The notes beneath the pieces are model-generated. The model was given only the letters and a program-made list of their open reading frames with translations. It ran no database searches and was not told the DNA's origin. Positions 35,088 through 64,000 of a DNA stretch of 64,000 nt are shown here, one piece after another. Within the stretch, counting starts at the first letter, position 1; the number at the start of each line of letters is the position of its first letter. The position numbers and the translations under genes were made by a program. This DNA is from Nemertoderma westbladi (taxonomy: Eukaryota; Animalia; Xenacoelomorpha). The stretch is from positions 1-64,000 of the forward strand of contig JAUCBJ010004707.1 of the NCBI GenBank assembly GCA_032718475.1, given 5' to 3'.

Positions 35088-35245
35088 TTATTGATTTGGA
35101 TCCGAGTTGTAAAGATCTCGATATGGGACTTCCCAACTATCTGAGGACTTTTTCTATAATATCTGGGAACACAAACAACGCCTTCGCGATTACAGACGAC
35201 GGAAACCTTTTCGTCAACGATTTGACACAGTTTCATAAGGATACG
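35088..35245 (+). CDS. cadherin gene exon 23
   Basis: tatatag|(V)IDLDPSCKDLDMGLPNYLRTFSIISGNTNNAFAITDDGNLFV...HKDT|gtaata; phase 1-0. Confidence 0.85.
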
Positions 35246-35734: not shown

Positions 35735-35852
35735 ACTCCGTATTACTCACTGGTTATTCGCGTGTCTGACCGTGGAATCCCATCTCTTCATACCGATATC
35801 GTTGTAACTGGGAATATCGTAGACACTTACAACGTGGCACCAACCTTCATCA
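35735..35852 (+). CDS. cadherin gene exon 24
   Basis: ttgcag|TPYYSLVIRVSDRGIPSLHTDIVVTGNIVDTYNVAPTFI|gtaagt; phase 0-1. Confidence 0.92.
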
Positions 35853-35985
35853 GTAAGTATACTCATCTTCTGTGATATACACTGTAAGGAAGTGCGGCCC
35901 TCGAAAGTATGTAATTTTGCTATGCATTGATGGCTAGGACTTTGTTGTCATTGCATCGAAAATCAGCTTTTATAACTTTCTGTTG

Positions 35986-36152
35986 GGCAATGACGTCCGG
36001 GTGGGATCGAACTGGTGACCTCCGAGTTGGAAGTCTGACGCTCTAACCATTCAGCTAGCGGCTCAGGTAAAAGATAGACCTAGAAATACTATCTAATACC
36101 TTGTATGTCCGCAATTTACCTCCTCATGGCCTCCAATCTGTCAATACCACCA
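35986..36152 (-). mobile_element. tRNA-like/SINE-containing interspersed repeat, copy 2 (uninterrupted)
   Basis: The minus strand reads GCCGCTAGCTGAATGGTTAGAGCGTCAGACTTCCAACTCGGAGGTCACCAGTTCGATCCC (A box, TCC anticodon-like loop, B box). Homologous to 31814-32162. Confidence 0.7.
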
Positions 36153-36251
36153 TCTGCAGCCAATGTTCTCACTCCCTTTTGTACTTGGCCGTCTTGGCTA
36201 TTGAATTGGATTTGCTTTTTTTTACCATATATTTAATTATTATTGTTTCAG

Positions 36252-36367
36252 TCGGTAATGGTCCGGTTACGGTAGAATTATTAGAAGGGACTCCGATAGG
36301 AACTGTGGTCTCCAAAGTCTACACACCAGTGTTAGCAACCGACAAGGACGAACTTTATCCTGAGAAG
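36252..36367 (+). CDS. cadherin gene exon 25
   Basis: tttcag|(I)GNGPVTVELLEGTPIGTVV...VLATDKDELYPEK|gttagc; phase 1-0. Confidence 0.9.
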
Positions 36368-36495
36368 GTTAGCAAAAATAATGACAGTATTATTGTCGGT
36401 GACTCACTGGGTTCACCATAGCTGTGATTGACTGATTTAATTTAATTATTATATTTAATTGTTTCAATATTAATTAATGAAAACATTTTGTTTAG

Positions 36496-36684
36496 GTTTT
36501 GAGATACACAGTAGATGTTATAGCCGTAAATGTTGCCGCCCAGGTTGGGGCTGTACTTAAATCCCCCGAGGACCCAACCTTCGATATTTACTGCTGCGTC
36601 GAGGACTCCCCAAACACAGCTGTACTAATAACAACGGCGCCTTTGGACGCCGAGTATGTTACTAAATGGGATGTTACTGTAAAG
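36496..36684 (+). CDS. cadherin gene exon 26
   Basis: gtttag|VLRYTVDV...TFDIYCC...LITTAPLDAEYVTKWDVTVK|gtaagg; phase 0-0. Confidence 0.9.
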
Positions 36685-36711
36685 GTAAGGACGTTGTGAA
36701 ATATCTATCTA

Positions 36712-37047
36712 TAATCGGCCAGCTGCATTTGCAGCTGCACATATGCTATGCTGGCTTAAATAAAATATTGTACCACCACCACGCAATCCACATTTGAGAT
36801 GCCCCAATGCAGCGATCATTAGATAAGCTATGTCGGCTTATCAACAAAATTGCGCCGCCACAACTCCCTATCACCCATGACATTTGCTAGATCATCCGCA
36901 TCTTCATGGCCAGTGTCCTTTAAGATGCGTCTCAAGAAAGTCATAGGCTGTCCACCATGCTTATTCACTCCATGAGGCTGCCAAAGTACAAGATTATGTA
37001 ATGGGTAGTCCTCTCGGCGAAAGCAATGTCCTGCAAAGCGGAGGCGA
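36712..37047 (-). mobile_element. 3' fragment of the same RTE-like LINE family as 1-1570, inverted
   Basis: The reverse complement of ~36835-37047 closely matches ~1303-1515 (TCGCCTCCGCTTTGCAGGACATTGCTTT...GGGTGATAGGGAGTTGTGGCGGCGCAATTTTG). Confidence 0.88.
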
Positions 37048-37133
37048 AGCTCAAGCTTGACCGTTGAAGTGTAAAGATTAGCGTGTAGTCGATTTATTAA
37101 GTATCGTCGCTACTCGTAGGAGTGTTAATCTAC

Positions 37134-40100
37134 TGCGCTTTATATATTTGTTTGTAGGTGTGGGACCCTTCTAGTGCGCTTTATATATTTGTTTGTAGGT
37201 GTGGGACCCTTCTAGTGCGCTTTATATATTTGTTTGTAGGTGTGGGACCCTTCTAGTGCGCTTTATATATTTGTTTGTAGGTGTGGGACCCTTCTAGTGC
37301 GCTTTATATATTTGTTTGTTTGTGTGGGACCCTTCTAGTGCGCTTTATATATTTGTTTGTTTGTGTGGGACCCTTCTAGTGTGCTTTATATATTTGATTG
37401 TAGGTGTGGGACCCTTCTAGTGCGCTTTATATATTTGTTTGTAGGTGTGGGACCCTTCTAGTGCGCTTTATATATTTGTTTGTAGGTGTGGGACCCTTCT
37501 AGTGCGCTTTATATATTTGATTGTAGGTGTGGGACCCTTCTTGTGCGCTTTATATATTTGTTTGTAGGTGAGGGACCCTTCTAGTGCGCTTTATATATTT
37601 GTTTGTTTGTGTGGGACCCTTCTAGTGCGCTTTATATATTTGTTTGTAGGTGTTGGACCCTTCTAGTGCGCTTTATATATTTGATTGTAGGTGTGGGACC
37701 CTTCCAGTGCGCTTTATATATTTGTTTGTAGGTGTGGGACCCCTCTTGTGCGCTTTATATATTTGTTTGTAGGTGTGGGACCCTTCTAGTGCGCTTTATA
37801 TATTTGTTTGTTTGTGTGGGACCCTTCTAGTGTGCTTTATATATTTGATTGTAGGTGTGGGACCCTTCTAGTGCGCTTTATATATTTGTTTGTAGGTGTG
37901 GGACCCTTCTAGTGCGTTTTATATATTTGTTTGTTTGTGTGGGACCCTTCTAGTGTGCTTTATATATTTGATTGTAGGTGTGGGACCCTTCTAGTGCGCT
38001 TTATATATTTGTTTGTAGGTGTGGGACCCCTCTTGTGCGCTTTATATATTTGTTTGTAGGTGTGGGACCCCTCTTGTGCGCTTTATATATTTGTTTGTAG
38101 GTGAGGGACCCTTCTAGTGCGCTTTATATATTTGTTTGTAGGTGTGGGACCCTTCTAGTGCGCTTTATATATTTGTTTGTAGGTGTGGGGCCCTTCTAGT
38201 GCGCTTTATATATTTGTTTGTAGGTGTGGGACCCTTCTAGTGCGCTTTATATATTTGATTGTAGGTGTGGGACCCTTCTAGTGCGCTTTATATATTTGAT
38301 TGTAGGTGTGGGACCTTCTAGTGCGCTTTATATATTTGATTGTAGGTGTGGGACCCTTCCAGTGCGCTTTATATATTTGTTTGTAGGTGTGGGACCCCTC
38401 TTGTGCGCTTTATATATTTGTTTTTAGGTGAGGGACCCTTCTAGTGCGCTTTATATATTTGTTTGTTTGTGTGGGACCCTTCTAGTGCGCTTTATATATT
38501 TGATTGTAGGTGTGGGACCCTTCTAGTGCGCTTTATATATTTGATTGTAGGTGTGGGACCCTTCCAGTGCGCTTTATATATTTGTTTGTAGGTGTGGGAC
38601 CCTTCTAGTACGCTTTATATATTTGTTTGTAGGTGTGGGACCCTTCTATTGCGCTTTATATATTTGTTTGTAGGTGTGGGACCCCTCTTGTGCGCTTTAT
38701 ATATTTGTTTGTAGGTGTGGGACCCCTCTTGTGCGCTTTATATATTTGTTTGTAGGTGAGGGACCCTTCTAGTGCGCTTTATATATTTGTTTGTAGGTGT
38801 GGGACCCTTCTAGTGCGCTTTATATATTTGTTTGTAGGTGTGGGGCCCTTCTAGTGCGCTTTATATATTTGTTTGTAGGTGTGGGACCCTTCTAGTGCGC
38901 TTTATATATTTGATTGTAGGTGTGGGACCCTTCTAGTGCGCTTTATATATTTGATTGTAGGTGTGGGACCTTCTAGTGCGCTTTATATATTTGATTGTAG
39001 GTGTGGGACCCTTCCAGTGCGCTTTATATATTTGTTTGTAGGTGTGGGACCCCTCTTGTGCGCTTTATATATTTGTTTTTAGGTGAGGGACCCTTCTAGT
39101 GCGCTTTATATATTTGTTTGTTTGTGTGGGACCCTTCTAGTGCGCTTTATATATTTGATTGTAGGTGTGGGACCCTTCTAGTGCGCTTTATATATTTGAT
39201 TGTAGGTGTGGGACCCTTCCAGTGCGCTTTATATATTTGTTTGTAGGTGTGGGACCCTTCTAGTACGCTTTATATATTTGTTTGTAGGTGTGGGACCCTT
39301 CTAGTGCGCTTTATATATTTGATTGTAGGTGTGGGACCCTTCTAGTGCGCTTTATATATTTGTTTGTAGGTGAGGGACCCTTCTAGTGCGCTTTATATAT
39401 TTGTTTGTTTGTGTGGGACCCTTCTAGTACGCTTTATATATTTGTTTGTAGGTGTGGGACCCTTCTATTGCGCTTTATATATTTGTTTGTAGGTGTGGGA
39501 CCCTTCTAGTGTGCTTTATATATTTGTTTGTTTGTGTGGGACCCTTCTAGTGCGCTTTATATATTTGTTTGTTTGTGTGGGACCCTTCTAGTGCACTTTA
39601 TATATTTGTTTGTTTGTGTGGGACCCTTCTAGTGCGCTTTATATATTTGTTTGTTTGTGTGGGACCCTTCTAGTGCACTTTATATATTTGTTTGTTTGTG
39701 TGGGACCCTTCTAGTGCGCTTTATATATTTGATTGTAGGTGAGGGACCCTTCTAGTGCGCTTTATATATTTGTTTGTTTGGTGTGGGACCCTTCTAGTGC
39801 GCTTTATATATTTGTTTGTTTGTGTGGGACCCTTCTAGTGCACTTTATATATTTGTTTGTTTGTGTGGGACCCTTCTAGTGCGCTTTATATATTTGTTTG
39901 TTTGGTGTGGGACCCTTCTAGTGCGCTTTATATATTTGTTTGTTTGTGTGGGACCCTTCTAGTGCACTTTATATATTTGTTTGTTTGTGTGGGACCCTTC
40001 TAGTGCGCTTTATATATTTGTTTGTAGGTGTTGGACCCTTCTAGTGTGCTTTATATATTTGTTTGTAGGTGTTGGACCCTTCTAGTGCGCTTTATATATT

Positions 40101-43100
40101 TGTTTGTAGGTGAGGGACCCTTCTAGTGCGCTTTATATATTTGTTTGTTTGTGTGGGACCCTTCTAGTGCGCTTTATATATTTGATTGTAGGTGTGGGAC
40201 CCTTCTAGTGCGCTTTATATATTTGTTTGTAGGTGTTGGACCCTTCTAGTGCGCTTTATATATTTGTTTGTTTGTGTGGGACCCTTCTAGTGCGCTTTAT
40301 ATATTTGATTGTAGGTGTGGGACCCTTCTAGTGCGCTTTATATATTTGTTTGTAGGTGTGGGACCCCTCTTGTGCGCTTTATATATTTGTTTGTAGGTGA
40401 GGGACCCTTCTAGTGCGCTTTATATATTTGTTTGTTTGTGTGGGACCCTTCTAGTGTGCTTTATATATTTGATTGTAGGTGTGGGACCCTTCTAGTGCGC
40501 TTTATATATTTGATTGTAGGTGTGGGACCCTTCTAGTGCGCTTTATATATTTGTTTGTAGGTGTGGGACCCTTCTAGTGCGCTTTATATATTTGTTTGTT
40601 TGTGTGGGACCCTTCTAGTGTGCTTTATATATTTGATTGTAGGTGTGGGACCCTTCTAGTGCGCTTTATATATTTGTTTGTAGGTGTGGGACCCTTCTAG
40701 TGCGCTTTATATATTTGTTTGTAGGTGTGGGACCCTTCTAGTGCGCTTTATATATTTGTTTGTAGGTGTGGGACCCTTCTAGTGCGCTTTATATATTTGT
40801 TTGTAGGTGTGGGACCCTTCTAGTGCGCTTTATATATTTGTTTGTAGGTGTGGGACCCTTCTAGTGCGCTTTATATATTTGTTTGTAGGTGTGGGACCCT
40901 TCTAGTGCGCTTTATATATTTGTTTGTAGGTGTGGGACCCTTCTAGTGCGCTTTATATATTTGTTTGTAGGTGTGGGACCCTTCTAGTGCGCTTTATATA
41001 TTTGTTTGTAGGTGTGGGACCCTTCTAGTGTGCTTTATATATTTGCTTGTAGGTGTGGGACCCTTCTAGTGCGCTTTATATATTTGTTTGTAGGTGTTGG
41101 ACCCTTCTAGTGCGCTTTATATGTTTGTTTGTAGGTGTGGGACCCTTCTAGTGCGCTTTATATATTTGTTTGTAGGTGTGGGACCCTTCTAGTGCACTTT
41201 ATATATTTGTTTGTTGGTGTGGGACCCTTCTAGTGCGCTTTATATATTTGTTTGTTTGTGTGGGACCCTTCTAGTGCGCTTTATATATTTGTTTGTTTGT
41301 GTGGGACCCTTCTAGTGCACTTTATATATTTGATTGTAGGTGTGGGACCCTTCTAGTGCGCTTTATATATTTGATTGTAGGTGTGGGACCCTTCTAGTGC
41401 GCTTTATATATTTGATTGTAGGTGTGGGACCCTTCCAGTGCGCTTTATATATTTGTTTGTTTGTGTGGGACCCTTCTAGTGTGCTTTATATATTTGATTG
41501 TAGGTGTGGGACCCTTCTAGTGCGCTTTATATATTTGATTGTAGGTGTGGGACCCCTCTAGTGCGCTTTATATATTTGTTTGTAGGTGTTGGACCCTTCT
41601 AGTGCGCTTTATATATTTGTTTGTTTGTGTGGGACCCTTCTAGTGTGCTTTATATATTTGATTGTAGGTGTGGGACCCTTCTAGTGCGCTTTATATATTT
41701 GATTGTAGGTGTGGGACCTTCTAGTGCGCTTTATATATTTGATTGTAGGTGTGGGACCCTTCTAGTGCGCTTTATATATTTGATTGTAGGTGTGGGACCC
41801 TTCTAGTGCGCTTTATATATTTGATTGTAGGTGTGGGACCCTTCTAGTGCGCTTTATATATTTGTTTGTAGGTGTGGGACCCTTCTAGTGCGCTTTATAT
41901 ATTTGTTTGTAGGTGTGGGACCCTTCTAGTGCGCTTTATATATTTGTTTGTAGGTGTGGGACCCTTCTAGTGCGCTTTATATATTTGTTTGTTTGTGTGG
42001 GACCCTTCTAGTGCGCTTTATATATTTGTTTGTAGGTGTGGGACCCTTCTAGTGCGCTTTATATATTTGGTTGTAGGTGTGGGACCCCTCTTGTGCGCTT
42101 TATATATTTGTTTGTAGGTGAGGGACCCTTCTAGTGCGCTTTATATATTTGTTTGTTTGTGTGGGACCCTTCTAGTGCGCTTTATATATTTGTTTGTAGG
42201 TGTGGGACCCTTCTAGTGCGCTTTATATATTTGTTTGTAGGTGTGGGACCCTTCTGTGCGCTTTATATATTTGTTTGTTGGTGTGGGACCCTTCTAGTGC
42301 GCTTTATATATTTGTTTGTTTGTGTGGGACCCTTCTAGTGCGCTTTATATATTTGTTTGTAGGTGTGGGACCCTTCTAGTGCGCTTTATATATTTGGTTG
42401 TAGGTGTGGGACCCCTCTTGTGCGCTTTATATATTTGTTTGTAGGTGAGGGACCCTTCTAGTGCGCTTTATATATTTGTTTGTTTGTGTGGGACCCTTCT
42501 AGTGCGCTTTATATATTTGTTTGTTTGTGTGGGACCCTTCTAGTGCGCTTTATATATTTGTTTGTTTGTGTGGGACCCTTCTAGTGCGCTTTATATATTT
42601 GTTTGTAGGTGTGGGACCCTTCTAGTGCGCTTTATATATTTGTTTGTTTGTGTGGGACCCTTCTAGTGCGCTTTATATATTTGTTTGTAGGTGTGGGACC
42701 CTTCTAGTGCACTTTATATATTTGTTTGTTTGTGTGGGACCCTTCTAGTGCGCTTTATATATTTGTTTGTTTGTGTGGGACCCTTCTAGTGCACTTTATA
42801 TATTTGTTTGTTTGTGTGGGACCCTTCTAGTGCGCTTTATATATTTGATTGTAGGTGTGGGACCCTTCTAGTGCGCTTTATATATTTGTTTGTTTGTGTG
42901 GGACCCTTCTAGTGCGCTTTATATATTTGTTTGTTTGTGTGGGACCCTTCTAGTGCGCTTTATATATTTGTTTGTTTGTGTGGGACCCTTCTAGTGCACT
43001 TTATATATTTGTTTGTTTGTGTGGGACCCTTCTAGTGCGCTTTATATATTTGTTTGTAGGTGTGGGACCCTTCTAGTGCGCTTTATATATTTGTTTGTAG

Positions 43101-46100
43101 GTGTGGGACCCTTCTAGTGCGCTTTATATATTTGTTTGTTTGTGTGGGACCCTTCTAGTGCGCTTTATATATTTGTTTGTTTGTGTGGGACCCTTCTAGT
43201 GCGCTTTATATATTTGTTTGTTTGTGTGGGACCCTTCTAGTGCACTTTATATATTTGTTTGTTTGTGTGGGACCCTTCTAGTGCACTTTATATATTTGTT
43301 TGTTTGTGTGGGACCCTTCTAGTGCGCTTTATATATTTGATTGTAGGTGTGGGGCCCTTCTAGTGCGCTTTATATATTTGTTTGTAGGTGTGGGACCCTT
43401 CTAGTGCGCTTTATATATTTGTTTGTTTGTGTGGGACCCTTCTAGTGCGCTTTATATATTTGTTTGTTTGTGTGGGACCCTTCTAGTGCACTTTATATAT
43501 TTGTTTGTTTGTGTGGGACCCTTCTAGTGCGCTTTATATATTTGATTGTAGGTGTGGGACCCTTCTAGTGCGCTTTATATATTTGTTTGTAGGTGTGGGA
43601 CCCTTCTAGTGCGCTTTATATATTTGTTTGTAGGTGTGGGACCCTTCTAGTGCGCTTTATATATTTGTTTGTTTGTGTGGGACCCTTCTAGTGCGCTTTA
43701 TATATTTGTTTGTTTGTGTGGGACCCTTCTAGTGCGCTTTATATATTTGTTTGTTTGTGTGGGACCCTTCTAGTGCGCTTTATATATTTGTTTGTTTGTG
43801 TGGGACCCTTCTAGTGCGCTTTATATATTTGTTTGTAGGTGTGGGACCCTTCTAGTGCGCTTTATATATTTGTTTGTAGGTGTGGGACCCTTCTAGTGCA
43901 CTTTATATATTTGTTTGTTTGTGTGGGACCCTTCTAGTGCACTTTATATATTTGTTTGTTTGTGTGGGACCCTTCTAGTGCGCTTTATATATTTGATTGT
44001 AGGTGTGGGACCCTTCTAGTGCGCTTTATATATTTGTTTGTAGGTGTGGGACCCTTCCAGTGCGCTTTATATATTTGTTTGTAGGTGTGGGACCCTTCTA
44101 GTGCGCTTTATATATTTGTTTGTAGGTGTGGGACCCTTCTAGTGCGCTTTATATATTTGTTTGTTTGTGTGGGACCCTTCTAGTGCGCTTTATATATTTG
44201 TTTGTTTGTGTGGGACCCTTCTAGTGCGCTTTATATATTTGTTTGTTTGTGTGGGACCCTTCTAGTGCGCTTTATATATTTGTTTGTTTGTGTGGGACCC
44301 TTCTAGTGCACTTTATATATTTGTTTGTTTGTGTGGGACCCTTCTAGTGCGCTTTATATATTTGATTGTAGGTGTGGGACCCTTCTAGTGCGCTTTATAT
44401 ATTTGTTTGTAGGTGTGGGACCCTTCTAGTGCGCTTTATATATTTGTTTGTTTGTGTGGGACCCTTCTAGTGCGCTTTATATATTTGTTTGTTTGTGTGG
44501 GACCCTTCTAGTGCGCTTTATATATTTGTTTGTTTGTGTGGGACCCTTCTAGTGCGCTTTATATATTTGTTTGTTTGTGTGGGACCCTTCTAGTGCGCTT
44601 TATATATTTGTTTGTTTGTGTGGGACCCTTCTAGTGCACTTTATATATTTGTTTGTTTGTGTGGGACCCTTCTAGTGCGCTTTATATATTTGATTGTAGG
44701 TGTGGGACCCTTCTAGTGCGCTTTATATATTTGTTTGTAGGTGTGGGACCCTTCTAGTGCGCTTTATATATTTGTTTGTTTGTGTGGGACCCTTCTAGTG
44801 CGCTTTATATATTTGTTTGTTTGTGTGGGACCCTTCTAGTGCGCTTTATATATTTGTTTGTTTGTGTGGGACCCTTCTAGTGCACTTTATATATTTGTTT
44901 GTTTGTGTGGGACCCTTCTAGTGCGCTTTATATATTTGTTTGTTTGTGTGGGACCCTTCTAGTGCACTTTATATATTTGTTTGTTTGTGTGGGACCCTTC
45001 TAGTGCGCTTTATATATTTGATTGTAGGTGTGGGACCCTTCTAGTGCGCTTTATATATTTGTTTGTAGGTGTGGGACCCTTCTAGTGCACTTTATATATT
45101 TGATTGTAGGTGTGGGACCCTTCTAGTGCGCTTTATATATTTGTTTGTAGGTGTGGGACCCTTCTAGTGCGCTTTATATATTTGTTTGTAGGTGTGGGAC
45201 CCTTCTAGTGCGCTTTATATATTTGTTTGTAGGTGTGGGACCCTTCTAGTGCACTTTATATATTTGTTTGTTTGTGTGGGACCCTTCTAGTGCACTTTAT
45301 ATATTTGTTTGTTTGTGTGGGACCCTTCTAGTGCGCTTTATATATTTGATTGTAGGTGTGGGACCCTTCTAGTGCGCTTTATATATTTGTTTGTAGGTGT
45401 GGGACCCTTCCAGTGCGCTTTATATATTTGTTTGTAGGTGTGGGACCTTCTAGTGCGCTTTATATATTTGGTTGTAGGTGTGGGACCCCTCTTGTGCGCT
45501 TTATATATTTGTTTGTAGGTGTGGGACCCTTCTAGTGCGCTTTATATATTTGTTTGTAGGTGTGGGACCCTTCTAGTGCACTTTATATATTTGTTTGTTT
45601 GTGTGGGACCCTTCTAGTGCACTTTATATATTTGTTTGTTTGTGTGGGACCCTTCTAGTGCGCTTTATATATTTGATTGTAGGTGTGGGACCCTTCTAGT
45701 GCGCTTTATATATTTGTTTGTAGGTGTGGGACCCTTCCAGTGCGCTTTATATATTTGTTTGTAGGTGTGGGACCTTCTAGTGCGCTTTATATATTTGGTT
45801 GTAGGTGTGGGACCCCTCTTGTGCGCTTTATATATTTGTTTGTAGGTGTGGGACCCTTCTAGTGCGCTTTATATATTTGTTTGTAGGTGTGGGACCCTTC
45901 TAGTGCGCTTTATATATTTGTTTGTTTGTGTGGGACCCTTCTAGTGCGCTTTATATATTTGTTTGTAGGTGTGGGACCCTTCTAGTGCGCTTTATATATT
46001 TGGTTGTAGGTGTGGGACCCCTCTTGTGCGCTTTATATATTTGTTTGTAGGTGAGGGACCCTTCTAGTGCGCTTTATATATTTGTTTGTTTGTGAGGGAC

Positions 46101-49100
46101 CCTTCTAGTGCGCTTTATATATTTGTTTGTTTGTGAGGGACCCTTCTAGTGCGCTTTATATATTTGTTTGTAGGTGTGGGACCCTTCTAGTGCGCTTTAT
46201 ATATTTGTTTGTTTGTGTGGGACCCTTCTAGTGCACTTTATATATTTGTTTGTAGGTGTGGGACCCTTCTAGTGCGCTTTATATATTTGTTTGTAGGTGT
46301 GGGACCCTTCTAGTGCGCTTTATATATTTGGTTGTAGGTGTGGGACCCCTCTTGTGCGCTTTATATATTTGTTTGTAGGTGAGGGACCCTTCTAGTGCGC
46401 TTTATATATTTGTTTGTTTGTGAGGGACCCTTCTAGTGCGCTTTATATATTTGTTTGTTTGTGAGGGACCCTTCTAGTGCGCTTTATATATTTGTTTGTA
46501 GGTGTGGGACCCTTCTAGTGCGCTTTATATATTTGTTTGTTTGTGAGGGACCCTTCTAGTGCGCTTTATATATTTGTTTGTTTGTGTGGGACCCTTCTAG
46601 TGCGCTTTATATATTTGTTTGTTTGGTGTGGGACCCTTCCAGTGCGCTTTATATATTTGTTTGTAGGTGTTGGACCCTTCTAGTGCGCTTTATATATTTG
46701 TTTGTAGGTGAGGGACCCTTCTAGTGCGCTTTATATATTTGTTTGTAGGTGTGGGACCCTTCTAGTGCGCTTTATATATTTGGTTGTAGGTGTGGGACCC
46801 CTCTTGTGCGCTTTATATATTTGTTTGTTTGTGAGGGACCCTTCTAGTGCGCTTTATATATTTGTTTGTTTGTGAGGGACCCTTCTAGTGCGCTTTATAT
46901 ATTTGTTTGTTTGTGAGGGACCCTTCTAGTGCGCTTTATATATTTGTTTGTTTGGTGTGGGACCCTTCTAGTGCGCTTTATATATTTGTTTGTTTGTGAG
47001 GGACCCTTCTAGTGCGCTTTATATATTTGTTTGTTTGTGAGGGACCCTTCTAGTGCGCTTTATATATTTGTTTGTTTGTGAGGGACCCTTCTAGTGCGCT
47101 TTATATATTTGTTTGTTTGGTGTGGGACCCTTCTAGTGCGCTTTATATATTTGTTTGTTTGTGAGGGACCCTTCTAGTGCGCTTTATATATTTGTTTGTT
47201 TGTGAGGGACCCTTCTAGTGCGCTTTATATATTTGTTTGTTTGGTGTGGGACCCTTCTAGTGCGCTTTATATATTTGTTTGTTTGTGAGGGACCCTTCTA
47301 GTGCGCTTTATATATTTGTTTGTTTGTGAGGGACCCTTCTAGTGCGCTTTATATATTTGTTTGTTTGTGAGGGACCCTTCTAGTGCGCTTTATATATTTG
47401 TTTGTTTGGTGTGGGACCCTTCTAGTGCGCTTTATATATTTGTTTGTTTGTGAGGGACCCTTCTAGTGCGCTTTATATATTTGTTTGTTTGTGAGGGACC
47501 CTTCTAGTGCGCTTTATATATTTGTTTGTTTGGTGTGGGACCCTTCTAGTGCGCTTTATATATTTGTTTGTTTGTGAGGGACCCTTCTAGTGCGCTTTAT
47601 ATATTTGTTTGTTTGTGAGGGACCCTTCTAGTGCGCTTTATATATTTGTTTGTTTGGTGTGGGACCCTTCTAGTGCGCTTTATATATTTGTTTGTTTGTG
47701 AGGGACCCTTCTAGTGCGCTTTATATATTTGTTTGTTTGTGAGGGACCCTTCTAGTGCGCTTTATATATTTGTTTGTTTGTGAGGGACCCTTCTAGTGCG
47801 CTTTATATATTTGTTTGTTTGTGAGGGACCCTTCTAGTGCGCTTTATATATTTGTTTGTTTGGTGTGGGACCCTTCTAGTGCGCTTTATATATTTGTTTG
47901 TTTGTGAGGGACCCTTCTAGTGCGCTTTATATATTTGTTTGTTTGTGAGGGACCCTTCTAGTGCGCTTTATATATTTGTTTGTAGGTGTGGGACCCTTCT
48001 AGTGCGCTTTATATATTTGATTGTAGGTGTGGGACCTTCTAGTGCGCTTTATATATTTGTTTGTAGGTGTGGGACCCTTCTAGTGCGCTTTATATATTTG
48101 TTTGTTTGTGAGGGACCCTTCTAGTGCGCTTTATATATTTGTTTGTAGGTGTGGGACCCTTCTAGTGCGCTTTATATATTTGTTTGTTTGTGAGGGACCC
48201 TTCTAGTGCGCTTTATATATTTGTTTGTAGGTGTGGGACCCTTCTAGTGCGCTTTATATATTTGTTTGTTTGTGAGGGACCCTTCTAGTGCACTTTATAT
48301 ATTTGTTTGTAGGTGTGGGACCCTTCTAGTGCGCTTTATATATTTGTTTGTAGGTGTGGGACCCTTCTAGTGCGCTTTATATATTTGTTTGTTTGTGAGG
48401 GACCCTTCTAGTGCGCTTTATATATTTGTTTGTTTGTGAGGGACCCTTCTAGTGCGCTTTATATATTTGTTTGTAGGTGTGGGACCCTTCTAGTGCGCTT
48501 TATATATTTGATTGTAGGTGTGGGACCTTCTAGTGCGCTTTATATATTTGTTTGTAGGTGTGGGACCCTTCTAGTGCGCTTTATATATTTGTTTGTTTGT
48601 GAGGGACCCTTCTAGTGCGCTTTATATATTTGTTTGTTTGTGAGGGACCCTTCTAGTGCGCTTTATATATTTGTTTGTTTGTGAGGGACCCTTCTAGTGC
48701 GCTTTATATATTTGTTTGTTTGTGAGGGACCCTTCTAGTGCGCTTTATATATTTGTTTGTTTGGTGTGGGACCCTTCTAGTGCGCTTTATATATTTGTTT
48801 GTTTGTGAGGGACCCTTCTAGTGCGCTTTATATATTTGTTTGTTTGTGAGGGACCCTTCTAGTGCGCTTTATATATTTGTTTGTAGGTGTGGGACCCTTC
48901 TAGTGCGCTTTATATATTTGATTGTAGGTGTGGGACCTTCTAGTGCGCTTTATATATTTGTTTGTAGGTGTGGGACCCTTCTAGTGCGCTTTATATATTT
49001 GTTTGTTTGTGAGGGACCCTTCTAGTGCGCTTTATATATTTGTTTGTAGGTGTGGGACCCTTCTAGTGCGCTTTATATATTTGTTTGTTTGTGAGGGACC

Positions 49101-52100: not shown

Positions 52101-55100
52101 TCTAGTGCGCTTTATATATTTGTTTGTAGGTGTGGGACCCTTCTAGTGCGCTTTATATATTTGTTTGTAGGTGTGGGACCCTTCTAGTGCGCTTTATATA
52201 TTTGTTTGTAGGTGTGGGACCCTTCTAGTGCGCTTTATATATTTGTTTGTAGGTGTGGGACCCTTCTAGTGCTCTTTATATATTTGTTTGTAGGTGTGGG
52301 ACCCTTCTAGTGCGCTTTATATATTTGTTTGTAGGTGTGGGACCCTTCTAGTGCGCTTTATATATTTGTTTGTAGGTGAGGGACCCTTCTAGTGCGCTTT
52401 ATATATTTGTTTGTTTGTGAGGGACCCTTCTAGTGCGCTTTATATATTTGTTTGTTTGTGAGGGACCCTTCTAGTGCGCTTTATATATTTGTTTGTAGGT
52501 GTGGGACCCTTCTAGTGCGCTTTATATATTTGTTTGTTTGTGAGGGACCCTTCTAGTGCGCTTTATATATTTGTTTGTAGGTGTGGGACCCTTCTAGTGC
52601 GCTTTATATATTTGTTTGTTTGTGAGGGACCCTTCTAGTGCGCTTTATATATTTGTTTGTTTGTGAGGGACCCTTCTAGTGCGCTTTATATATTTGATTG
52701 TAGGTGTGGGACCCTTCTAGTGCACTTTATATATTTGTTTGTTTGTGTGGGACCCTTCTAGTGCGCTTTATATATTTGTTTGTTTGTGTGGGACCCTTCT
52801 AGTGCACTTTATATATTTGTTTGTTTGTGTGGGACCCTTCTAGTGCGCTTTATATATTTGTTTGTTTGTGTGGGACCCTTCTAGTGCGCTTTATATATTT
52901 GTTTGTAGGTGTGGGACCCTTCTAGTGCGCTTTATATATTTGTTTGTTTGTGTGGGACCCTTCTAGTGCGCTTTATATATTTGTTTGTAGGTGTGGGACC
53001 CTTCTAGTGCGCTTTATATATTTGATTGTAGGTGTGGGACCCTTCTAGTGCGCTTTATATATTTGTTTGTTTGTGTGGGACCCTTCTAGTGTGCTTTATA
53101 TATTTGATTGTAGGTGTGGGACCCTTCTAGTGCGCTTTATATATTTGGTTGTAGGTGTGGGACCCCTCTTGTGCGCTTTATATATTTGTTTGTAGGTGAG
53201 GGACCCTTCTAGTGCGCTTTATATATTTGTTTGTAGGTGTGGGACCCTTCTAGTGCGCTTTATATATTTGTTTGTAGGTGTGGGACCCTTCTAGTGCGCT
53301 TTATATATTTGGTTGTAGGTGTGGGACCCCTCTTGTGCGCTTTATATATTTGTTTGTAGGTGAGGGACCCTTCTAGTGCGCTTTATATATTTGTTTGTAG
53401 GTGTGGGACCCTTCTAGTGCGCTTTATATATTTGTTTGTAGGTGAGGGACCCTTCTAGTGCGCTTTATATATTTGTTTGTAGGTGTGGGACCCTTCTAGT
53501 GCGCTTTATATATTTGTTTGTAGGTGTGGGACCCTTCTAGTGCGCTTTATATATTTGTTTGTTTGTGTGGGACCCTTCTAGTGCGCTTTATATATTTGTT
53601 TGTTTGTGTGGGACCCTTCTAGTGCGCTTTATATATTTGTTTGTAGGTGTGGGACCCTTCTAGTGTGCTTTATATATTTGATTGTAGGTGTGGGACCCTT
53701 CTAGTGCGCTTTATATATTTGTTTGTTTGTGTGGGACCCTTCTAGTGCGCTTTATATATTTGTTTGTTTGTGTGGGACCCTTCTAGTGCGCTTTATATAT
53801 TTGTTTGTTTGTGTGGGACCCTTCTAGTGCACTTTATATATTTGTTTGTTTGTGTGGGACCCTTCTAGTGCGCTTTATATATTTGTTTGTTTGTGAGGGA
53901 CCCTTCTAGTGCGCTTTATATATTTGTTTGTTTGTGAGGGACCCTTCTAGTGCGCTTTATATATTTGTTTGTTTGTGTGGGACCCTTCTAGTGCGCTTTA
54001 TATATTTGTTTGTTTGTGTGGGACCCTTCTAGTGCGCTTTATATATTTGTTTGTTTGTGTGGGACCCTTCTAGTGCGCTTTATATATTTGTTTGTTTGTG
54101 TGGGACCCTTCTAGTGCACTTTATATATTTGTTTGTTTGTGTGGGACCCTTCTAGTGCGCTTTATATATTTGTTTGTTTGTGTGGGACCCTTCTAGTGCG
54201 CTTTATATATTTGTTTGTTTGTGTGGGACCCTTCTAGTGCGCTTTATATATTTGTTTTTAGGTGTGGGACCCTTCTAGTGCGCTTTATATATTTGTTTGT
54301 AGGTGTGGGACCCTTCTAGTGCGCTTTATATATTTGTTTGTAGGTGTGGGACCCTTCTAGTGCGCTTTATATATTTGTTTGTAGGTGTGGGACCCTTCTA
54401 GTGCGCTTTATATATTTGTTTGTAGGTGTGGGACCCTTCTAGTGCGCTTTATATATTTGTTTGTAGGTGTGGGACCCTTCTAGTGCGCTTTATATATTTG
54501 TTTGTTTGTGTGGGACCCTTCTAGTGCGCTTTATATATTTGTTTGTTTGTGTGGGACCCTTCTAGTGCGCTTTATATATTTGTTTGTTTGTGTGGGACCC
54601 TTCTAGTGCGCTTTATATATTTGTTTGTTTGTGTGGGACCCTTCTAGTGCGCTTTATATATTTGTTTGTTTGTGTGGGACCCTTCTAGTGCGCTTTATAT
54701 ATTTGTTTGTTTGTGTGGGACCCTTCTAGTGCGCTTTATATATTTGTTTGTTTGTGTGGGACCCTTCTAGTGCGCTTTATATATTTGTTTGTTTGTGTGG
54801 GACCCTTCTAGTGCGCTTTATATATTTGTTTGTTTGTGTGGGACCCTTCTAGTGCGCTTTATATATTTGTTTGTTTGTGTGGGACCCTTCTAGTGCGCTT
54901 TATATATTTGTTTGTTTGTGTGGGACCCTTCTAGTGCGCTTTATATATTTGTTTGTTTGTGAGGGACCCTTCTAGTGCGCTTTATATATTTGTTTGTAGG
55001 TGTGGGGCCCTTCTAGTGCGCTTTATATATTTGTTTGTAGGTGTGGGACCCTTCTAGTGCGCTTTATATATTTGTTTGTAGGTGTGGGACCCTTCTAGTG

Positions 55101-58100
55101 CGCTTTATATATTTGTTTGTAGGTGTGGGACCCTTCTAGTGCGCTTTATATATTTGTTTGTTTGTGTGGGACCCTTCTAGTGCGCTTTATATATTTGTTT
55201 GTTTGTGAGGGACCCTTCTAGTGCGCTTTATATATTTGTTTGTTTGTGTGGGACCCTTCTAGTGCGCTTTATATATTTGTTTGTAGGTGTGGGACCCTTC
55301 TAGTGCGCTTTATATATTTGTTTGTTTGTGAGGGACCCTTCTAGTGCGCTTTATATATTTGTTTGTAGGTGTGGGGCCCTTCTAGTGCGCTTTATATATT
55401 TGTTTGTAGGTGTGGGGCCCTTCTAGTGCGCTTTATATATTTGTTTGTTTGTGTGGGACCCTTCTAGTGCACTTTATATATTTGTTTGTTTGTGAGGGAC
55501 CCTTCTAGTGCACTTTATATATTTGTTTGTTTGTGTGGGACCCTTCTAGTGCACTTTATATATTTGTTTGTTTGTGTGGGACCCTTCTAGTGCGCTTTAT
55601 ATATTTGTTTGTAGGTGTGGGGCCCTTCTAGTGCGCTTTATATATTTGTTTGTTTGTGAGGGACCCTTCTAGTGCGCTTTATATATTTGTTTGTAGGTGT
55701 GGGGCCCTTCTAGTGCGCTTTATATATTTGTTTGTAGGTGTGGGGCCCTTCTAGTGCGCTTTATATATTTGTTTGTTTGTGTGGGACCCTTCTAGTGCAC
55801 TTTATATATTTGTTTGTTTGTGAGGGACCCTTCTAGTGCACTTTATATATTTGTTTGTTTGTGTGGGACCCTTCTAGTGCACTTTATATATTTGTTTGTT
55901 TGTGTGGGACCCTTCTAGTGCGCTTTATATATTTGTTTGTTTGTGTGGGACCCTTCTAGTGCACTTTATATATTTGTTTGTTTGTGAGGGACCCTTCTAG
56001 TGCGCTTTATATATTTGTTTGTAGGTGTGGGGCCCTTCTAGTGCGCTTTATATATTTGTTTGTAGGTGTGGGGCCCTTCTAGTGCGCTTTATATATTTGT
56101 TTGTTTGTGTGGGACCCTTCTAGTGCGCTTTATATATTTGTTTGTTTGTGTGGGACCCTTCTAGTGCACTTTATATATTTGTTTGTTTGTGAGGGACCCT
56201 TCTAGTGCGCTTTATATATTTGTTTGTTTGTGTGGGACCCTTCTAGTGCACTTTATATATTTGTTTGTTTGTGAGGGACCCTTCTAGTGCGCTTTATATA
56301 TTTGTTTGTTTGTGTGGGACCCTTCTAGTGCGCTTTATATATTTGTTTGTTTGTGAGGGACCCTTCTAGTGCGCTTTATATATTTGTTTGTTTGTGAGGG
56401 ACCCTTCTAGTGCGCTTTATATATTTGTTTGTTTGTGTGGGACCCTTCTAGTGCACTTTATATATTTGTTTGTTTGTGTGGGACCCTTCTAGTGCACTTT
56501 ATATATTTGTTTGTTTGTGAGGGACCCTTCTAGTGCACTTTATATATTTGTTTGTTTGTGTGGGACCCTTCTAGTGCACTTTATATATTTGTTTGTTTGT
56601 GTGGGACCCTTCTAGTGCGCTTTATATATTTGTTTGTTTGTGTGGGACCCTTCTAGTGCACTTTATATATTTGTTTGTTTGTGAGGGACCCTTCTAGTGC
56701 GCTTTATATATTTGTTTGTAGGTGTGGGGCCCTTCTAGTGCGCTTTATATATTTGTTTGTAGGTGTGGGGCCCTTCTAGTGCGCTTTATATATTTGTTTG
56801 TTTGTGTGGGACCCTTCTAGTGCGCTTTATATATTTGTTTGTTTGTGTGGGACCCTTCTAGTGCACTTTATATATTTGTTTGTTTGTGAGGGACCCTTCT
56901 AGTGCGCTTTATATATTTGTTTGTTTGTGTGGGACCCTTCTAGTGCGCTTTATATATTTGTTTGTTTGTGAGGGACCCTTCTAGTGCGCTTTATATATTT
57001 GTTTGTTTGTGAGGGACCCTTCTAGTGCGCTTTATATATTTGTTTGTTTGTGTGGGACCCTTCTAGTGCACTTTATATATTTGTTTGTTTGTGAGGGACC
57101 CTTCTAGTGCGCTTTATATATTTGTTTGTTTGTGTGGGACCCTTCTAGTGCGCTTTATATATTTGTTTGTTTGTGAGGGACCCTTCTAGTGCGCTTTATA
57201 TATTTGTTTGTTTGTGAGGGACCCTTCTAGTGCGCTTTATATATTTGTTTGTTTGTGAGGGACCCTTCTAGTGCGCTTTATATATTTGTTTGTTTGTGAG
57301 GGACCCTTCTAGTGCGCTTTATATATTTGTTTGTTTGTGAGGGACCCTTCTAGTGCGCTTTATATATTTGTTTGTTTGTGTGGGACCCTTCTAGTGCGCT
57401 TTATATATTTGTTTGTTTGTGAGGGACCCTTCTAGTGCGCTTTATATATTTGTTTGTTTGTGAGGGACCCTTCTAGTGCGCTTTATATATTTGTTTGTAG
57501 GTGAGGGACCCTTCTAGTGCACTTTATATATTTGTTTGTTTGTGTGGGACCCTTCTAGTGCGCTTTATATATTTGTTTGTTTGTGTGGGACCCTTCTAGT
57601 GCACTTTATATATTTGTTTGTTTGTGAGGGACCCTTCTAGTGCGCTTTATATATTTGTTTGTTTGTGTGGGACCCTTCTAGTGCGCTTTATATATTTGTT
57701 TGTTTGTGAGGGACCCTTCTAGTGCGCTTTATATATTTGTTTGTTTGTGAGGGACCCTTCTAGTGCGCTTTATATATTTGTTTGTAGGTGTGGGGCCCTT
57801 CTAGTGCGCTTTATATATTTGTTTGTAGGTGTGGGGCCCTTCTAGTGCGCTTTATATATTTGTTTGTAGGTGTGGGACCCTTCTAGTGCGCTTTATATAT
57901 TTGTTTGTTTGTGTGGGACCCTTCTAGTGCGCTTTATATATTTGTTTGTTTGTGTGGGACCCTTCTAGTGCGCTTTATATATTTGTTTGTTTGTGTGGGA
58001 CCCTTCCAGTGCGCTTTATATATTTGTTTGTTTGTGTGGGACCCTTCTAGTGCGCTTTATATATTTGTTTGTAGGTGTGGGACCCTTCTAGTGCGCTTTA

Positions 58101-61100
58101 TATATTTGTTTGTTTGTGAGGGACCCTTCTAGTGCGCTTTATATATTTGTTTGTTTGTGAGGGACCCTTCTAGTGCGCTTTATATATTTGTTTGTTTGTG
58201 AGGGACCCTTCTAGTGCGCTTTATATATTTGTTTGTTTGTGTGGGACCCTTCTAGTGCGCTTTATATATTTGTTTGTTTGTGTGGGACCCTTCTAGTGCA
58301 CTTTATATATTTGTTTGTTTGTGTGGGACCCTTCTAGTGCGCTTTATATATTTGTTTGTTTGTGTGGGACCCTTCTAGTGCACTTTATATATTTGTTTGT
58401 TTGTGTGGGACCCTTCTAGTGCACTTTATATATTTGTTTGTTTGTGTGGGACCCTTCTAGTGCGCTTTATATATTTGTTTGTTTGTGTGGGACCCTTCTA
58501 GTGCACTTTATATATTTGTTTGTTTGTGTGGGACCCTTCTAGTGCGCTTTATATATTTGTTTGTTTGTGTGGGACCCTTCTAGTGCACTTTATATATTTG
58601 TTTGTTTGTGTGGGACCCTTCTAGTGCGCTTTATATATTTGTTTGTAGGTGTGGGACCCTTCTAGTGCGCTTTATATATTTGTTTTTAGGTGAGGGACCC
58701 TTCTAGTGCGCTTTATATATTTGTTTGTTTGGTGTGGGACCCTTCTAGTGCGCTTTATATATTTGTTTGTTTGTGTGGGACCCTTCTAGTGCACTTTATA
58801 TATTTGTTTGTTTGTGTGGGACCCTTCTAGTGCGCTTTATATATTTGTTTGTTTGTGTGGGACCCTTCTAGTGCGCTTTATATATTTGTTTGTTTGTGTG
58901 GGACCCTTCTAGTGCGCTTTATATATTTGTTTGTTTGTGAGGGACCCTTCTAGTGCGCTTTATATATTTGTTTGTTTGTGTGGGACCCTTCTAGTGCGCT
59001 TTATATATTTGTTTGTTTGTGTGGGACCCTTCTAGTGCGCTTTATATATTTGTTTGTAGGTGTGGGACCCTTCTAGTGCGCTTTATATATTTGTTTTTAG
59101 GTGAGGGACCCTTCTAGTGCGCTTTATATATTTGTTTGTTTGGTGTGGGACCCTTCTAGTGCGCTTTATATATTTGTTTGTTTGTGTGGGACCCTTCTAG
59201 TGCACTTTATATATTTGTTTGTTTGTGTGGGACCCTTCTAGTGCGCTTTATATATTTGTTTGTTTGTGTGGGACCCTTCTAGTGCGCTTTATATATTTGT
59301 TTGTTTGTGTGGGACCCTTCTAGTGCGCTTTATATATTTGTTTGTTTGTGAGGGACCCTTCTAGTGCGCTTTATATATTTGTTTGTTTGTGTGGGACCCT
59401 TCTAGTGCGCTTTATATATTTGTTTGTTTGTGTGGGACCCTTCTAGTGCGCTTTATATATTTGTTTGTTTGTGTGGGACCCTTCTAGTGCACTTTATATA
59501 TTTGTTTGTTTGTGTGGGACCCTTCTAGTGCGCTTTATATATTTGTTTGTTTGTGTGGGACCCTTCTAGTGCACTTTATATATTTGTTTGTTTGTGAGGG
59601 ACCCTTCTAGTGCACTTTATATATTTGTTTGTTTGTGTGGGACCCTTCTAGTGCACTTTATATATTTGTTTGTTTGTGTGGGACCCTTCTAGTGCGCTTT
59701 ATATATTTGTTTGTTTGTGTGGGACCCTTCTAGTGCACTTTATATATTTGTTTGTTTGTGAGGGACCCTTCTAGTGCACTTTATATATTTGTTTGTTTGT
59801 GTGGGACCCTTCTAGTGCGCTTTATATATTTGTTTGTTTGTGTGGGACCCTTCTAGTGCACTTTATATATTTGTTTGTTTGTGAGGGACCCTTCTAGTGC
59901 GCTTTATATATTTGTTTGTTTGTGTGGGACCCTTCTAGTGCGCTTTATATATTTGTTTGTTTGTGTGGGACCCTTCTAGTGCGCTTTATATATTTGTTTG
60001 TTTGTGTGGGACCCTTCTAGTGCGCTTTATATATTTGTTTGTAGGTGTGGGACCCTTCTAGTGCGCTTTATATATTTGTTTGTTTGTGTGGGACCCTTCT
60101 AGTGCGCTTTATATATTTGTTTGTTTGTGTGGGACCCTTCTAGTGCACTTTATATATTTGTTTGTTTGTGTGGGACCCTTCTAGTGCGCTTTATATATTT
60201 GTTTGTTTGTGTGGGACCCTTCTAGTGCGCTTTATATATTTGTTTGTTTGTGTGGGACCCTTCTAGTGCACTTTATATATTTGTTTGTTTGTGTGGGACC
60301 CTTCTAGTGCGCTTTATATATTTGTTTGTTTGTGTGGGACCCTTCTAGTGCACTTTATATATTTGTTTGTTTGTGTGGGACCCTTCTAGTGCGCTTTATA
60401 TATTTGTTTGTTTGTGTGGGACCCTTCTAGTGCACTTTATATATTTGTTTGTTTGTGTGGGACCCTTCTAGTGCACTTTATATATTTGTTTGTTTGTGTG
60501 GGACCCTTCTAGTGCACTTTATATATTTGTTTGTTTGTGTGGGACCCTTCTAGTGCGCTTTATATATTTGTTTGTTTGTGTGGGACCCTTCTAGTGCACT
60601 TTATATATTTGTTTGTTTGTGTGGGACCCTTCTAGTGCACTTTATATATTTGTTTGTAGGTGAGGGACCCTTCTAGTGCACTTTATATATTTGTTTGTTT
60701 GTGTGGGACCCTTCTAGTGCGCTTTATATATTTGTTTGTTTGTGTGGGACCCTTCTAGTGCGCTTTATATATTTGTTTGTAGGTGTGGGACCCTTCTAGT
60801 GCGCTTTATATATTTGTTTGTAGGTGTGGGACCCTTCTAGTGCGCTTTATATATTTGTTTGTAGGTGTGGGACCCTTCTAGTGCGCTTTATATATTTGTT
60901 TGTAGGTGTGGGACCCTTCTAGTGCGCTTTATATATTTGTTTGTAGGTGTGGGACCCTTCTAGTGCGCTTTATATATTTGTTTGTAGGTGTGGGACCCTT
61001 CTAGTACGCTTTATATATTTGTTTGTAGGTGTGGGACCCTTCTAGTGCGCTTTATATATTTGTTTGTAGGTGTGGGACCCTTCTAGTGCGCTATATATTT

Positions 61101-64000
61101 GTTTGTAGGTGAGGGACCCTTCTAGTGCGCTTTATATATTTGTTTGTAGGTGTGGGACCCTTCTAGTGCGCTTTATATATTTGTTTGTAGGTGTGGGACC
61201 CTTCTAGTGCGCTTTATATATTTGTTTGTAGGTGTGGGACCCTTCTAGTGCGCTTTATATATTTGTTTGTAGGTGTGGGACCCTTCTAGTGCGCTTTATA
61301 TATTTGTTTGTAGGTGTGGGACCCTTCTAGTGCGCTTATATATTTGTTTGTAGGTGTGGGACCCTTCTAGTGCGCTTTATATATTTGTTTGTAGGTGTGG
61401 GACCCTTCTAGTGCGCTTTATATATTTGTTTGTAGGTGTGGGACCCTTCTAGTGCGCTTATATATTTGTTTGTAGGTGTGGGACCCTTCTAGTGCGCTTT
61501 ATATATTTGTTTGTAGGTGTGGGACCCTTCTAGTGCGCTTTATATATTTGTTTGTAGGTGTGGGACCCTTCTAGTGCGCTTATATATTTGTTTGTAGGTG
61601 TGGGACCCTTCTAGTGCGCTTTATATATTTGTTTGTAGGTGTGGGACCCTTCTAGTGCGCTTTATATATTTGTTTGTAGGTGTGGGACCCTTCTAGTGCG
61701 CTTTATATATTTGTTTGTAGGTGTGGGACCCTTCTAGTGCGCTTTATATATTTGTTTGTAGGTGTGGGACCCTTCTAGTGCGCTTTATATATTTGTTTGT
61801 AGGTGTGGGACCCTTCTAGTGCGCTTTATATATTTGTTTGTAGGTGTGGGACCCTTCTAGTGCGCTTTATATATTTGTTTGTAGGTGTGGGACCCTTCTA
61901 GTGCGCTTTATATATTTGTTTGTAGGTGTGGGACCCTTCTAGTGCGCTTTATATATTTGTTTGTAGGTGTGGGACCCTTCTAGTGCGCTTTATATATTTG
62001 TTTGTAGGTGTGGGACCCTTCTAGTGCGCTTTATATATTTGTTTGTAGGTGTGGGACCCTTCTAGTGCGCTTTATATATTTGTTTGTAGGTGTGGGACCC
62101 TTCTAGTGCGCTTTATATATTTGTTTGTAGGTGTGGGACCCTTCTAGTGCGCTTTATATATTTGTTTGTTGGTGTGGGACCCTTCTAGTGCGCTTTATAT
62201 ATTTGTTTGTAGGTGTGGGACCCTTCTAGTGCGCTTTATATATTTGTTTGTAGGTGTGGGACCCTTCTAGTGCGCTTTATATATTTGTTTGTAGGTGTGG
62301 GACCCTTCTAGTGCGCTTTATATATTTGTTTGTAGGTGTGGGACCCTTCTAGTGCGCTTTATATATTTGTTTGTAGGTGTGGGACCCTTCTAGTGCGCTT
62401 TATATATTTGTTTGTAGGTGTGGGACCCTTCTAGTGCGCTTTATATATTTGTTTGTAGGTGTGGGACCCTTCTAGTGCGCTTTATATATTTGTTTGTAGG
62501 TGTGGGACCCTTCTAGTGCGCTTTATATATTTGTTTGTTGGTGTGGGACCCTTCTAGTGCGCTTTATATATTTGTTTGTAGGTGTGGGACCCTTCTAGTG
62601 CGCTTTATATATTTGTTTGTAGGTGTGGGACCCTTCTAGTGCGCTTTATATATTTGTTTGTAGGTGTGGGACCCTTCTAGTGCGCTTTATATATTTGTTT
62701 GTAGGTGTGGGACCCTTCTAGTGCGCTTTATATATTTGTTTGTAGGTGTGGGACCCTTCTAGTGCGCTTTATATATTTGTTTGTAGGTGTGGGACCCTTC
62801 TAGTGCGCTTTATATATTTGTTTGTAGGTGTGGGACCCTTCTAGTGCGCTTTATATATTTGTTTGTAGGTGTGGGACCCTTCTAGTGCGCTTTATATATT
62901 TGTTTGTAGGTGTGGGACCCTTCTAGTGCGCTTTATATATTTGTTTGTAGGTGTGGGACCCTTCTAGTGCGCTTTATATATTTGTTTGTAGGTGTGGGAC
63001 CCTTCTAGTGCGCTTTATATATTTGTTTGTAGGTGTGGGACCCTTCTAGTGCGCTTTATATATTTGTTTGTAGGTGTGGGACCCTTCTAGTGCGCTTTAT
63101 ATATTTGTTTGTAGGTGTGGGACCCTTCTAGTGCGCTTTATATATTTGTTTGTAGGTGTGGGACCCTTCTAGTGCGCTTTATATATTTGTTTGTAGGTGT
63201 GGGACCCTTCTAGTGCGCTTTATATATTTGTTTGTAGGTGTGGGACCCTTCTAGTGCGCTTTATATATTTGTTTGTAGGTGTGGGACCCTTCTAGTGCGC
63301 TTTATATATTTGTTTGTAGGTGTGGGACCCTTCTAGTGCGCTTTATATATTTGTTTGTAGGTGTGGGACCCTTCTAGTGCGCTTTATATATTTGTTTGTA
63401 GGTGTGGGACCCTTCTAGTGCGCTTTATATATTTGTTTGTAGGTGTGGGACCCTTCTAGTGCGCTTTATATATTTGTTTGTAGGTGTGGGACCCTTCTAG
63501 TGCGCTTTATATATTTGTTTGTAGGTGTGGGACCCTTCTAGTGCGCTTTATATATTTGTTTGTAGGTGTGGGACCCTTCTAGTGCGCTTTATATATTTGT
63601 TTGTAGGTGTGGGACCCTTCTAGTGCGCTTTATATATTTGTTTGTAGGTGTGGGACCCTTCTAGTGCGCTTTATATATTTGTTTGTAGGTGTGGGACCCT
63701 TCTAGTGCGCTTTATATATTTGTTTGTAGGTGTGGGACCCTTCTAGTGCGCTTTATATATTTGTTTGTAGGTGTGGGACCCTTCTAGTGCGCTTTATATA
63801 TTTGTTTGTAGGTGTGGGACCCTTCTAGTGCGCTTTATATATTTGTTTGTAGGTGTGGGACCCTTCTAGTGCGCTTTATATATTTGTTTGTAGGTGTGGG
63901 ACCCTTCTAGTGCGCTTTATATATTTGTTTGTAGGTGTGGGACCCTTCTAGTGCGCTTTATATATTTGTTTGTAGGTGTGGGACCCTTCTAGTGCGCTTT
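37134..64000. repeat. 41-bp satellite (TGCGCTTTATATATTTGTTTGTAGGTGTGGGACCCTTCTAG)n, ~655 copies in window, continues past the end; probably an amplified 3' splice junction
   Basis: Tandem array read directly. The unit is a T-rich tract + TAG + GTG TGG GAC CCT TCT AGT GCG CT. Confidence 0.98.

Follow-up and report, generated by a model that had tools for sequence, protein, structure and literature searches.

How a gene could still yield an intact transcript when the end of one of its introns has been copied several hundred times is the question raised by a 64,000-nucleotide stretch from the xenacoelomorph Nemertoderma westbladi (GenBank assembly GCA_032718475.1, contig JAUCBJ010004707.1, positions 1 to 64,000, forward strand; hereafter the window). 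From 37134 to the window end at 64000, on the + strand and within intron 26 of a cadherin-repeat gene, the sequence is a 41-bp tandem array of at least 655 units and 44 unit types. An earlier note had proposed that this satellite of more than 26 kb is an amplified 3′ splice site together with the first codons of the next cadherin exon. Our analysis supports that proposal: Tandem Repeats Finder reported 655.3 copies (37129-64000, period 41, 96% matches), a 21-mer from the unit matched 650 times in the window against none in 100 shuffles, and the unit combines a strong acceptor with an in-phase V-W-D. Each unit corresponds to the last 24 nt of intron 26 (pyrimidine-rich tract plus AG) followed by the first 17 nt of the inferred exon 27. 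We consider it probable that a 41-bp piece likely spanning this junction was amplified in tandem at a single locus to give the array, a 'mirage' minisatellite, and that intact messenger RNA (mRNA) would arise by joining exon 26 to the last copy.

The host gene was modelled by assembling stop-free segments and splice candidates, giving 26 exons (1642..36684, + strand) with GT-AG introns throughout and 1638 stop-free codons, open at both ends. Twelve cadherin-type linkers are evident in the model, and the Pfam Cadherin family matched five of the 12 exon translations scanned, one of them above the curated cut-off; exon 26 gave no match, and protein searches with it found no homologue among database proteins of 34-111 and 112-2000 aa. 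Exon 26 (36496..36684, + strand) ends as the earlier note had read it, with W-D-V-T-V-K in phase 0 and the donor AAG|GTAAGG. Its end falls directly before the V-x-D that comes after this strand in the protein's other repeats, and the V-W-D of the array unit continues it in phase 0.

Splice-site matrices built from this gene's own sites identify the intron part of the first unit (37134..37157, + strand), which holds a U-rich tract and a TAG, as an acceptor of 10.3 bits, a value equalled or exceeded by 4 of the 25 real acceptors in a leave-one-out comparison. The resemblance to the exon 14 acceptor that had been pointed out previously is borne out by a shared 15-base run. The unique part of intron 26 (36685..37133, + strand) contains no other acceptor above 3.7 bits, the score of the only other candidate in the intron. 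The exon-like part of the first unit (37158..37178, + strand) reads V-W-D-P-S-S-A in phase 0 and starts with GT, such that intact copies present AG|GT; the score of its seven codons equals the exon median and exceeds that of 97.5% of intron 21-mers. Among 11304 unique-intron positions, an AG of at least 10 bits occurred at two and an AG followed in phase by [VILAF]-x-D at two, with both features together at none. A branch-point-like motif, TTAAT (37125..37129, + strand), lies outside the amplified unit, with its A at position -30 relative to the first acceptor. YTRAY motifs lie 12-45 nt upstream of 17/26 real acceptors compared with 33% of background windows (binomial p 0.0007), and within the array only the first of the 319 intact acceptors has one, the other 318 being without it; the unique flank before the first copy therefore looks like the original intron end. 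If the array is collapsed, intron 26 measures 473 nt, which is typical of this gene, whose introns without arrays span 104-1736 nt. Taken together, the tandem units very probably derive from a splice junction and span an intron-exon boundary, the identity of the exon being deduced from DNA only.

The array is open at the window end, and its exit was sought in assembled contigs of three public DNA runs from two samples, aligned to 37134-37200 (14, 61 and 16 records aligned). In each of the three runs exactly one contig leaves the array for unique DNA with a long loose end, and it does so at the same position, after the base equivalent to 37178 (codon 7, Ala), with 30 identical letters, beyond which the exit contig runs on for at least 255 more; an extra 12-letter loose end in one run is an AG-less unit. 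With one exit in 3/3 runs, the array behaves as a single-locus element, and no foreign entry was seen within the 67-base stretch in any run, bearing in mind that an entry of identical phase would not show in this comparison. Multi-locus satellite DNA, for which several unrelated flanks would be expected, was thus rejected, and the proposal survives the check for such a satellite that the earlier note had attached to it. The exit also sharpens two of its details. The exonic reading V-W-D-P-S-S-A-L holds for the seven codons to Ala and fails for Leu, as the exit follows codon 7. The shared microhomology is TGCG and not TGCGCT: TCTA-C-TGCG at the entry (37129..37137, + strand) matches TCTA-G-TGCG at 37170-37178 in 8/9 bases and is the likely seed of the first duplication. 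Entry and exit share this TGCG within TCTA-[C/G]-TGCG, which fits clean amplification of one 41-bp piece.

Read in the frame of V-W-D-P-S-S-A, the exit letters give F-D-S-L-L-F-H-I-S-V, with 10/10 visible codons stop-free. Hydrophobic residues fall at D+10, +12 and +14, a spacing found in 2/12 repeats of this protein, and the G-strand profile score of the exit is reached by 361 of 24120 intron 30-mers (605 of 24120 in free register; p 0.015-0.025). An array ending in ordinary intron had been named as grounds for abandoning the proposal; what these 30 AT-rich letters show is a stop-free continuation with G-strand-like spacing, which leaves it standing and inclines toward an authentic boundary at this end of the array. 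A microexon of 28 or 46 nt was rejected, the candidate donors in the exit letters scoring below zero; splice sites within the 30 letters are poor throughout, with donor and acceptor scores of -0.7 to -4.1 bits.

Several properties of the exit weigh against its being exonic. Its G+C content is 27%, compared with 47.5% in exons and 33% in introns, and only 1.9% of exon 30-mers are this low. Its codon score lies below those of all 12 real G strands and 96.5% of exon 30-mers, such scores being about twice as dense among intron as among exon 30-mers (about 2:1 for intron), and its G-strand score of 0.67 is below that of 11/12 real G strands. The exit is seen 30 letters deep and in assembled contigs only, which drop rare variants, and the exit contig is linked to the array solely as its sole exit, with no spanning read. 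These intron-like values of G+C content and codon score are what would be expected if the unit were ordinary intron DNA that matches the cadherin motif by chance, with the array ending in intron and exon 27 starting further on. The gene's two other large arrays, of a 36-mer and a 24-mer, hold no splice site, as this explanation would have it, and searches among proteins of up to 2000 aa gave no homologue by which the V-W-D continuation could be checked. We nevertheless regard a chance fit as very unlikely, because an acceptor of top rank, a branch-point motif ahead of it, V-x-D in phase, an exon-like score of seven codons that 2.5% of intron 21-mers share, and an in-frame exit resembling a G strand would all have to coincide.

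Within the window the array covers 26.9 kb, which is a lower bound on its length. Splitting on an anchor resolves the unit order into a mosaic of the 44 types, in which two longer blocks recur internally (20 units at lag 22 and 15 units at lag 16). Such a pattern points to genuine turnover and not to an assembly that was collapsed or inflated; an error of assembly may still affect the length. The array was found in two samples with single-nucleotide polymorphisms in the flank between them, and both samples that cover the gene have it; one more run had no coverage of the exon or of the array. Over exons 25-26, 5 of 607 letters in the second sample depart from the window, so that this sample represents another haplotype. 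Array depth is high in the two samples, and within one sample the summed contig depth, which is not a copy number, is about three times higher in one run than in another. A comparison with Rfam gave no match, and the metagenome collection searched did not contain the unit. A coding repeat was ruled out, as the three-unit cycle has stops in every frame. The hundreds of decoy acceptors that had been predicted are present in the sense that 319/655 copies keep their AG; the remaining 336/655 have lost it, mostly by an AG to TT change beside a TTTG repeat, and the splice signal is thus kept in many but not all units. Per 50 units, intact copies number 43 at the 5′ end, drop to 8 around 56-59 kb and climb back to 48 where the window ends. 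In contrast to the middle of the array, its last 2.5 kb (61400-64000) is nearly pure consensus unit with AG intact, which may reflect a recent expansion or nearness of the true exon. A T-to-A variant that converts GTGTGG into the stronger donor GTGAGG occurs in 143/655 units, 117 of them without AG.

An intact mRNA would require passing some 320 look-alike acceptors. Reading from the first of them (37158) meets a stop after 32 codons, in the third unit, as had been foreseen in outline. For 317 of the 319 intact acceptors the frame can be followed to a stop, which arrives within 73 codons in every case and after 32 codons in 222. In-frame, stop-free acceptor-donor pairs up to 600 nt number only 9 among the 319 acceptors. 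Nearly all decoy products are thus stopped or frameshifted, and the full-length protein therefore needs the last copy.

We propose that the array arose when slippage or unequal exchange between the TCTA-[C/G]-TGCG motifs 41 bp apart duplicated the acceptor, as the matching phase of entry and exit suggests. Ordinary minisatellite turnover could then have carried it to at least 655 copies, a process to which the 44-type mosaic would bear witness. Expansion would have left the branch point with the first copy, where the motif is found, and the exon body with the last copy, as the contigs indicate. The spliceosome would then select the last copy by exon definition, because only this copy has the full exon body and its own donor behind it. 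Decoy products, nearly all frameshifted or stopped on translation of the sequence, would presumably be cleared by nonsense-mediated decay. Direct joining to the last copy leans on amphioxus mirages, an acceptor-type one included, which have been reported as splicing-neutral (PMC3087553), and the reading is also in keeping with 26 upstream exons that are stop-free. Most likely the array has no function of its own and is a tolerated by-product. An alternative in which the decoys are hidden by RNA structure was rejected, since the folding of six units did not surpass that of shuffles (z +1.28). Other observations sit less easily with splicing directly to the last copy. It is not evident that simple exon definition would suffice, given that a donor-like TAG|GTGTGG follows most intact decoys at a distance of 41 nt or a few units and that the branch-point motif stands solely at the first copy. 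Moreover, published mirages comprise 3-26 copies, so that tolerance at 655 is an extrapolation.

The donor-like sequences raise the possibility that an array of the same origin is removed stepwise: exon 26 would join copy 1 by way of the native branch point, the regenerated donor would outcompete that of the next unit and splice onward, and the decoys would serve as zero-length recursive sites until the donor of the real exon wins. Splicing to any intact copy would regenerate a usable donor, since intact copies read AG|GT. In place, the unit's donor TAG|GTGTGG scores 7.7 bits, higher than 7/26 real donors; after joining to exon 26 it becomes AAG|GTGTGG and scores 9.9 bits, at or above 17/26 real donors and above the 7.7 bits of the next unit. 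Only 1/709 GT sites in unique intron reaches 9.9 bits, and the junction reads AG|GTGTG in 284 copies and AG|GTGAG in 26. The array thus shows the AG followed by a donor-strength GT that marks recursive or dual-specific sites, at least by a donor matrix that rests on 26 sites. Precedents exist in Drosophila ratchet points, where donor competition decides skipping (PMC8605326), and in human UBC, whose tandem AG|GT sites serve as donor and acceptor (PMC10809524). However, AG|GT stems from how the ancestral exon began and is not an adaptation, as 7/26 exons here start with GT; the Drosophila exon junction complex suppresses regenerated splice sites (PMC8184009); and the real junction bears the identical regenerated donor and must resist it. 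We consider stepwise removal unlikely. A more elaborate version would see the array as a natural chain of more than 300 recursive sites, in which mis-splicing corrects itself as the spliceosome ratchets over a satellite of 27 kb or more, self-correction allows an acceptor mirage to reach satellite size, and AG-less units spread by shortening the ratchet; this is a speculative extension that we hold to be rather improbable.

The 222 intact acceptors that lead to a stop after 32 codons bear on another possibility, in which the array has the same origin and is harmful or regulatory. Many transcripts would then use the first copy, at which alone branch point, tract and AG are combined, and would be degraded or would encode a truncated, likely secreted ectodomain, with copy number tuning the dose of full protein. 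Pseudo-donors are indeed used in human 6-16 and CBS (PMC1557585). The commonest variant of the acceptor array destroys the AG, whereas in a donor-type splice-site array of the same gene (10806..22065, + strand; 27/29-bp unit, about 409 copies) nearly all donors are intact, with 398 GTGAGT in 405 segmented units. Such a difference is expected if decoy acceptors upstream of the real site are costlier than decoy donors downstream of it. The comparison is suggestive, but one array against one is no test of selection; AG to TT is an easy change beside a TTTG repeat, and drift can carry a single event through an entire array. Furthermore, the 5′ end, where removal of decoys should help most, has lost the fewest AGs (43 of its first 50 units being intact), and neither of the two samples with coverage of the gene lacks the array. 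A harmful or regulatory array appears doubtful to us, and direct joining to the last copy of a tolerated array remains our preferred explanation.

By those features that lend themselves to testing, the array is a mirage in the sense established in amphioxus: its unit spans a junction, it is specific to one locus and its signal is partly lost. Amphioxus examples are BflGb6 (acceptor-type), BflGb9 (donor-type), Adh3, troponin C and PGBD5 (PMC3087553, PMC3902484). As in these, intron-exon boundaries are copied in tandem, the 41-bp unit lies within the reported 10-160 bp, many but not all copies keep AG or GT, and acceptor and donor types both occur. Scale and anatomy are new. Against the 3 and 6 units of BflGb6, this gene carries at least 655 over 26.9 kb and about 409 donor copies besides; the 655 exceed the largest published count compared at least 25-fold. 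In addition, intact units here are AG|GT and the branch-point motif has been left with the first copy. Our literature search, which covered mostly the main texts of papers outside subscription, found no acceptor array of comparable size.

Human exon-intron variable-number tandem repeats (VNTRs) are likewise minisatellites that span a splice site, with pseudo-sites silent or partly used: F7 IVS7 (37 bp, 5-9 copies), 6-16 (25 pseudo-sites), CBS IVS13 (15-20), LMNB2 (10-15) and PDGF (16-18) (PMC1557585). All of these, with 5-26 copies, are donor arrays in which the authentic site comes first; in the present array the last of hundreds of acceptors must be the authentic one, 27 kb or more beyond the first. 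Their direct parallel is the donor array at 10806-22065, which starts from the last codons of exon 11 plus the GTGAGT donor, in agreement with the mirrored arrangement that the earlier note had suggested; half of its units carry a 2-base length variant. With UBC (PMC10809524) and the ratchet points and RS-exons of Drosophila (PMC8605326) the array shares an AG placed directly before a donor-like GT, in tandem in the case of UBC. UBC units are 228 nt, coding and frame-preserving, whereas the present units are 41 nt, intronic and frame-breaking, and a UBC-type dual-site array was rejected on the broken frame and the 9 in-frame pairs. Site use has been demonstrated in UBC and at the Drosophila sites, and normal splicing has been reported for the amphioxus mirages (PMC3087553).

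At this scale, with about 320 near-identical acceptors before the real one, the array offers a stringent natural experiment on how a 3′ splice site is chosen. The first copy has the native branch-point motif, and the 409-copy donor array of the same gene provides an internal comparison. The intermediates to be expected here differ between first-AG scanning, exon definition and recursive splicing, and the sequence variants of the unit would allow reads to be placed along the array. More generally, satellite-size arrays can arise from a gene's own splice junctions, which is relevant to gene annotation in long-read assemblies.

The gene carries two further arrays. One with a 24-bp unit and 120 copies (25894-28759) lies in intron 16 and stops 23 nt short of exon 17, in the expected branch-point region, with the AG excluded; the other, with a 36-bp G+C-rich unit and 103 copies (2107-5717), lies in intron 1 and touches no splice site. 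Together the four arrays add 44.6 kb to the gene, the remaining sequence here amounting to 17.8 kb. An enrichment of arrays at splice sites (2/4 in this gene) was considered and is not clearly above chance, because 6-11% of random seeds of this size would span a splice site.

One cadherin repeat is interrupted by a 141-residue insert of non-cadherin sequence that contains cysteine and is encoded by exon 22 (33596-34021). It had no match in Pfam, in the PDB or among proteins of 248-2000 aa, and its single-sequence structural model was unusable (mean predicted local distance difference test score 42.9); it may resemble an F-type lectin-like domain. By eye, positions 1-1530, in the intron upstream of the first modelled exon, resemble a degenerate reverse-transcriptase-like retroelement. 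Dispersed repeats in introns 24 and 26 stand at high depth in the public contigs, a piece of one such high-copy repeat occupying about 36827-37047 in the unique part of intron 26. Dispersed-repeat copies at 35986-36166 and about 31815-32190 reach very high depth in the same contigs, and the two intronic copies appear similar.

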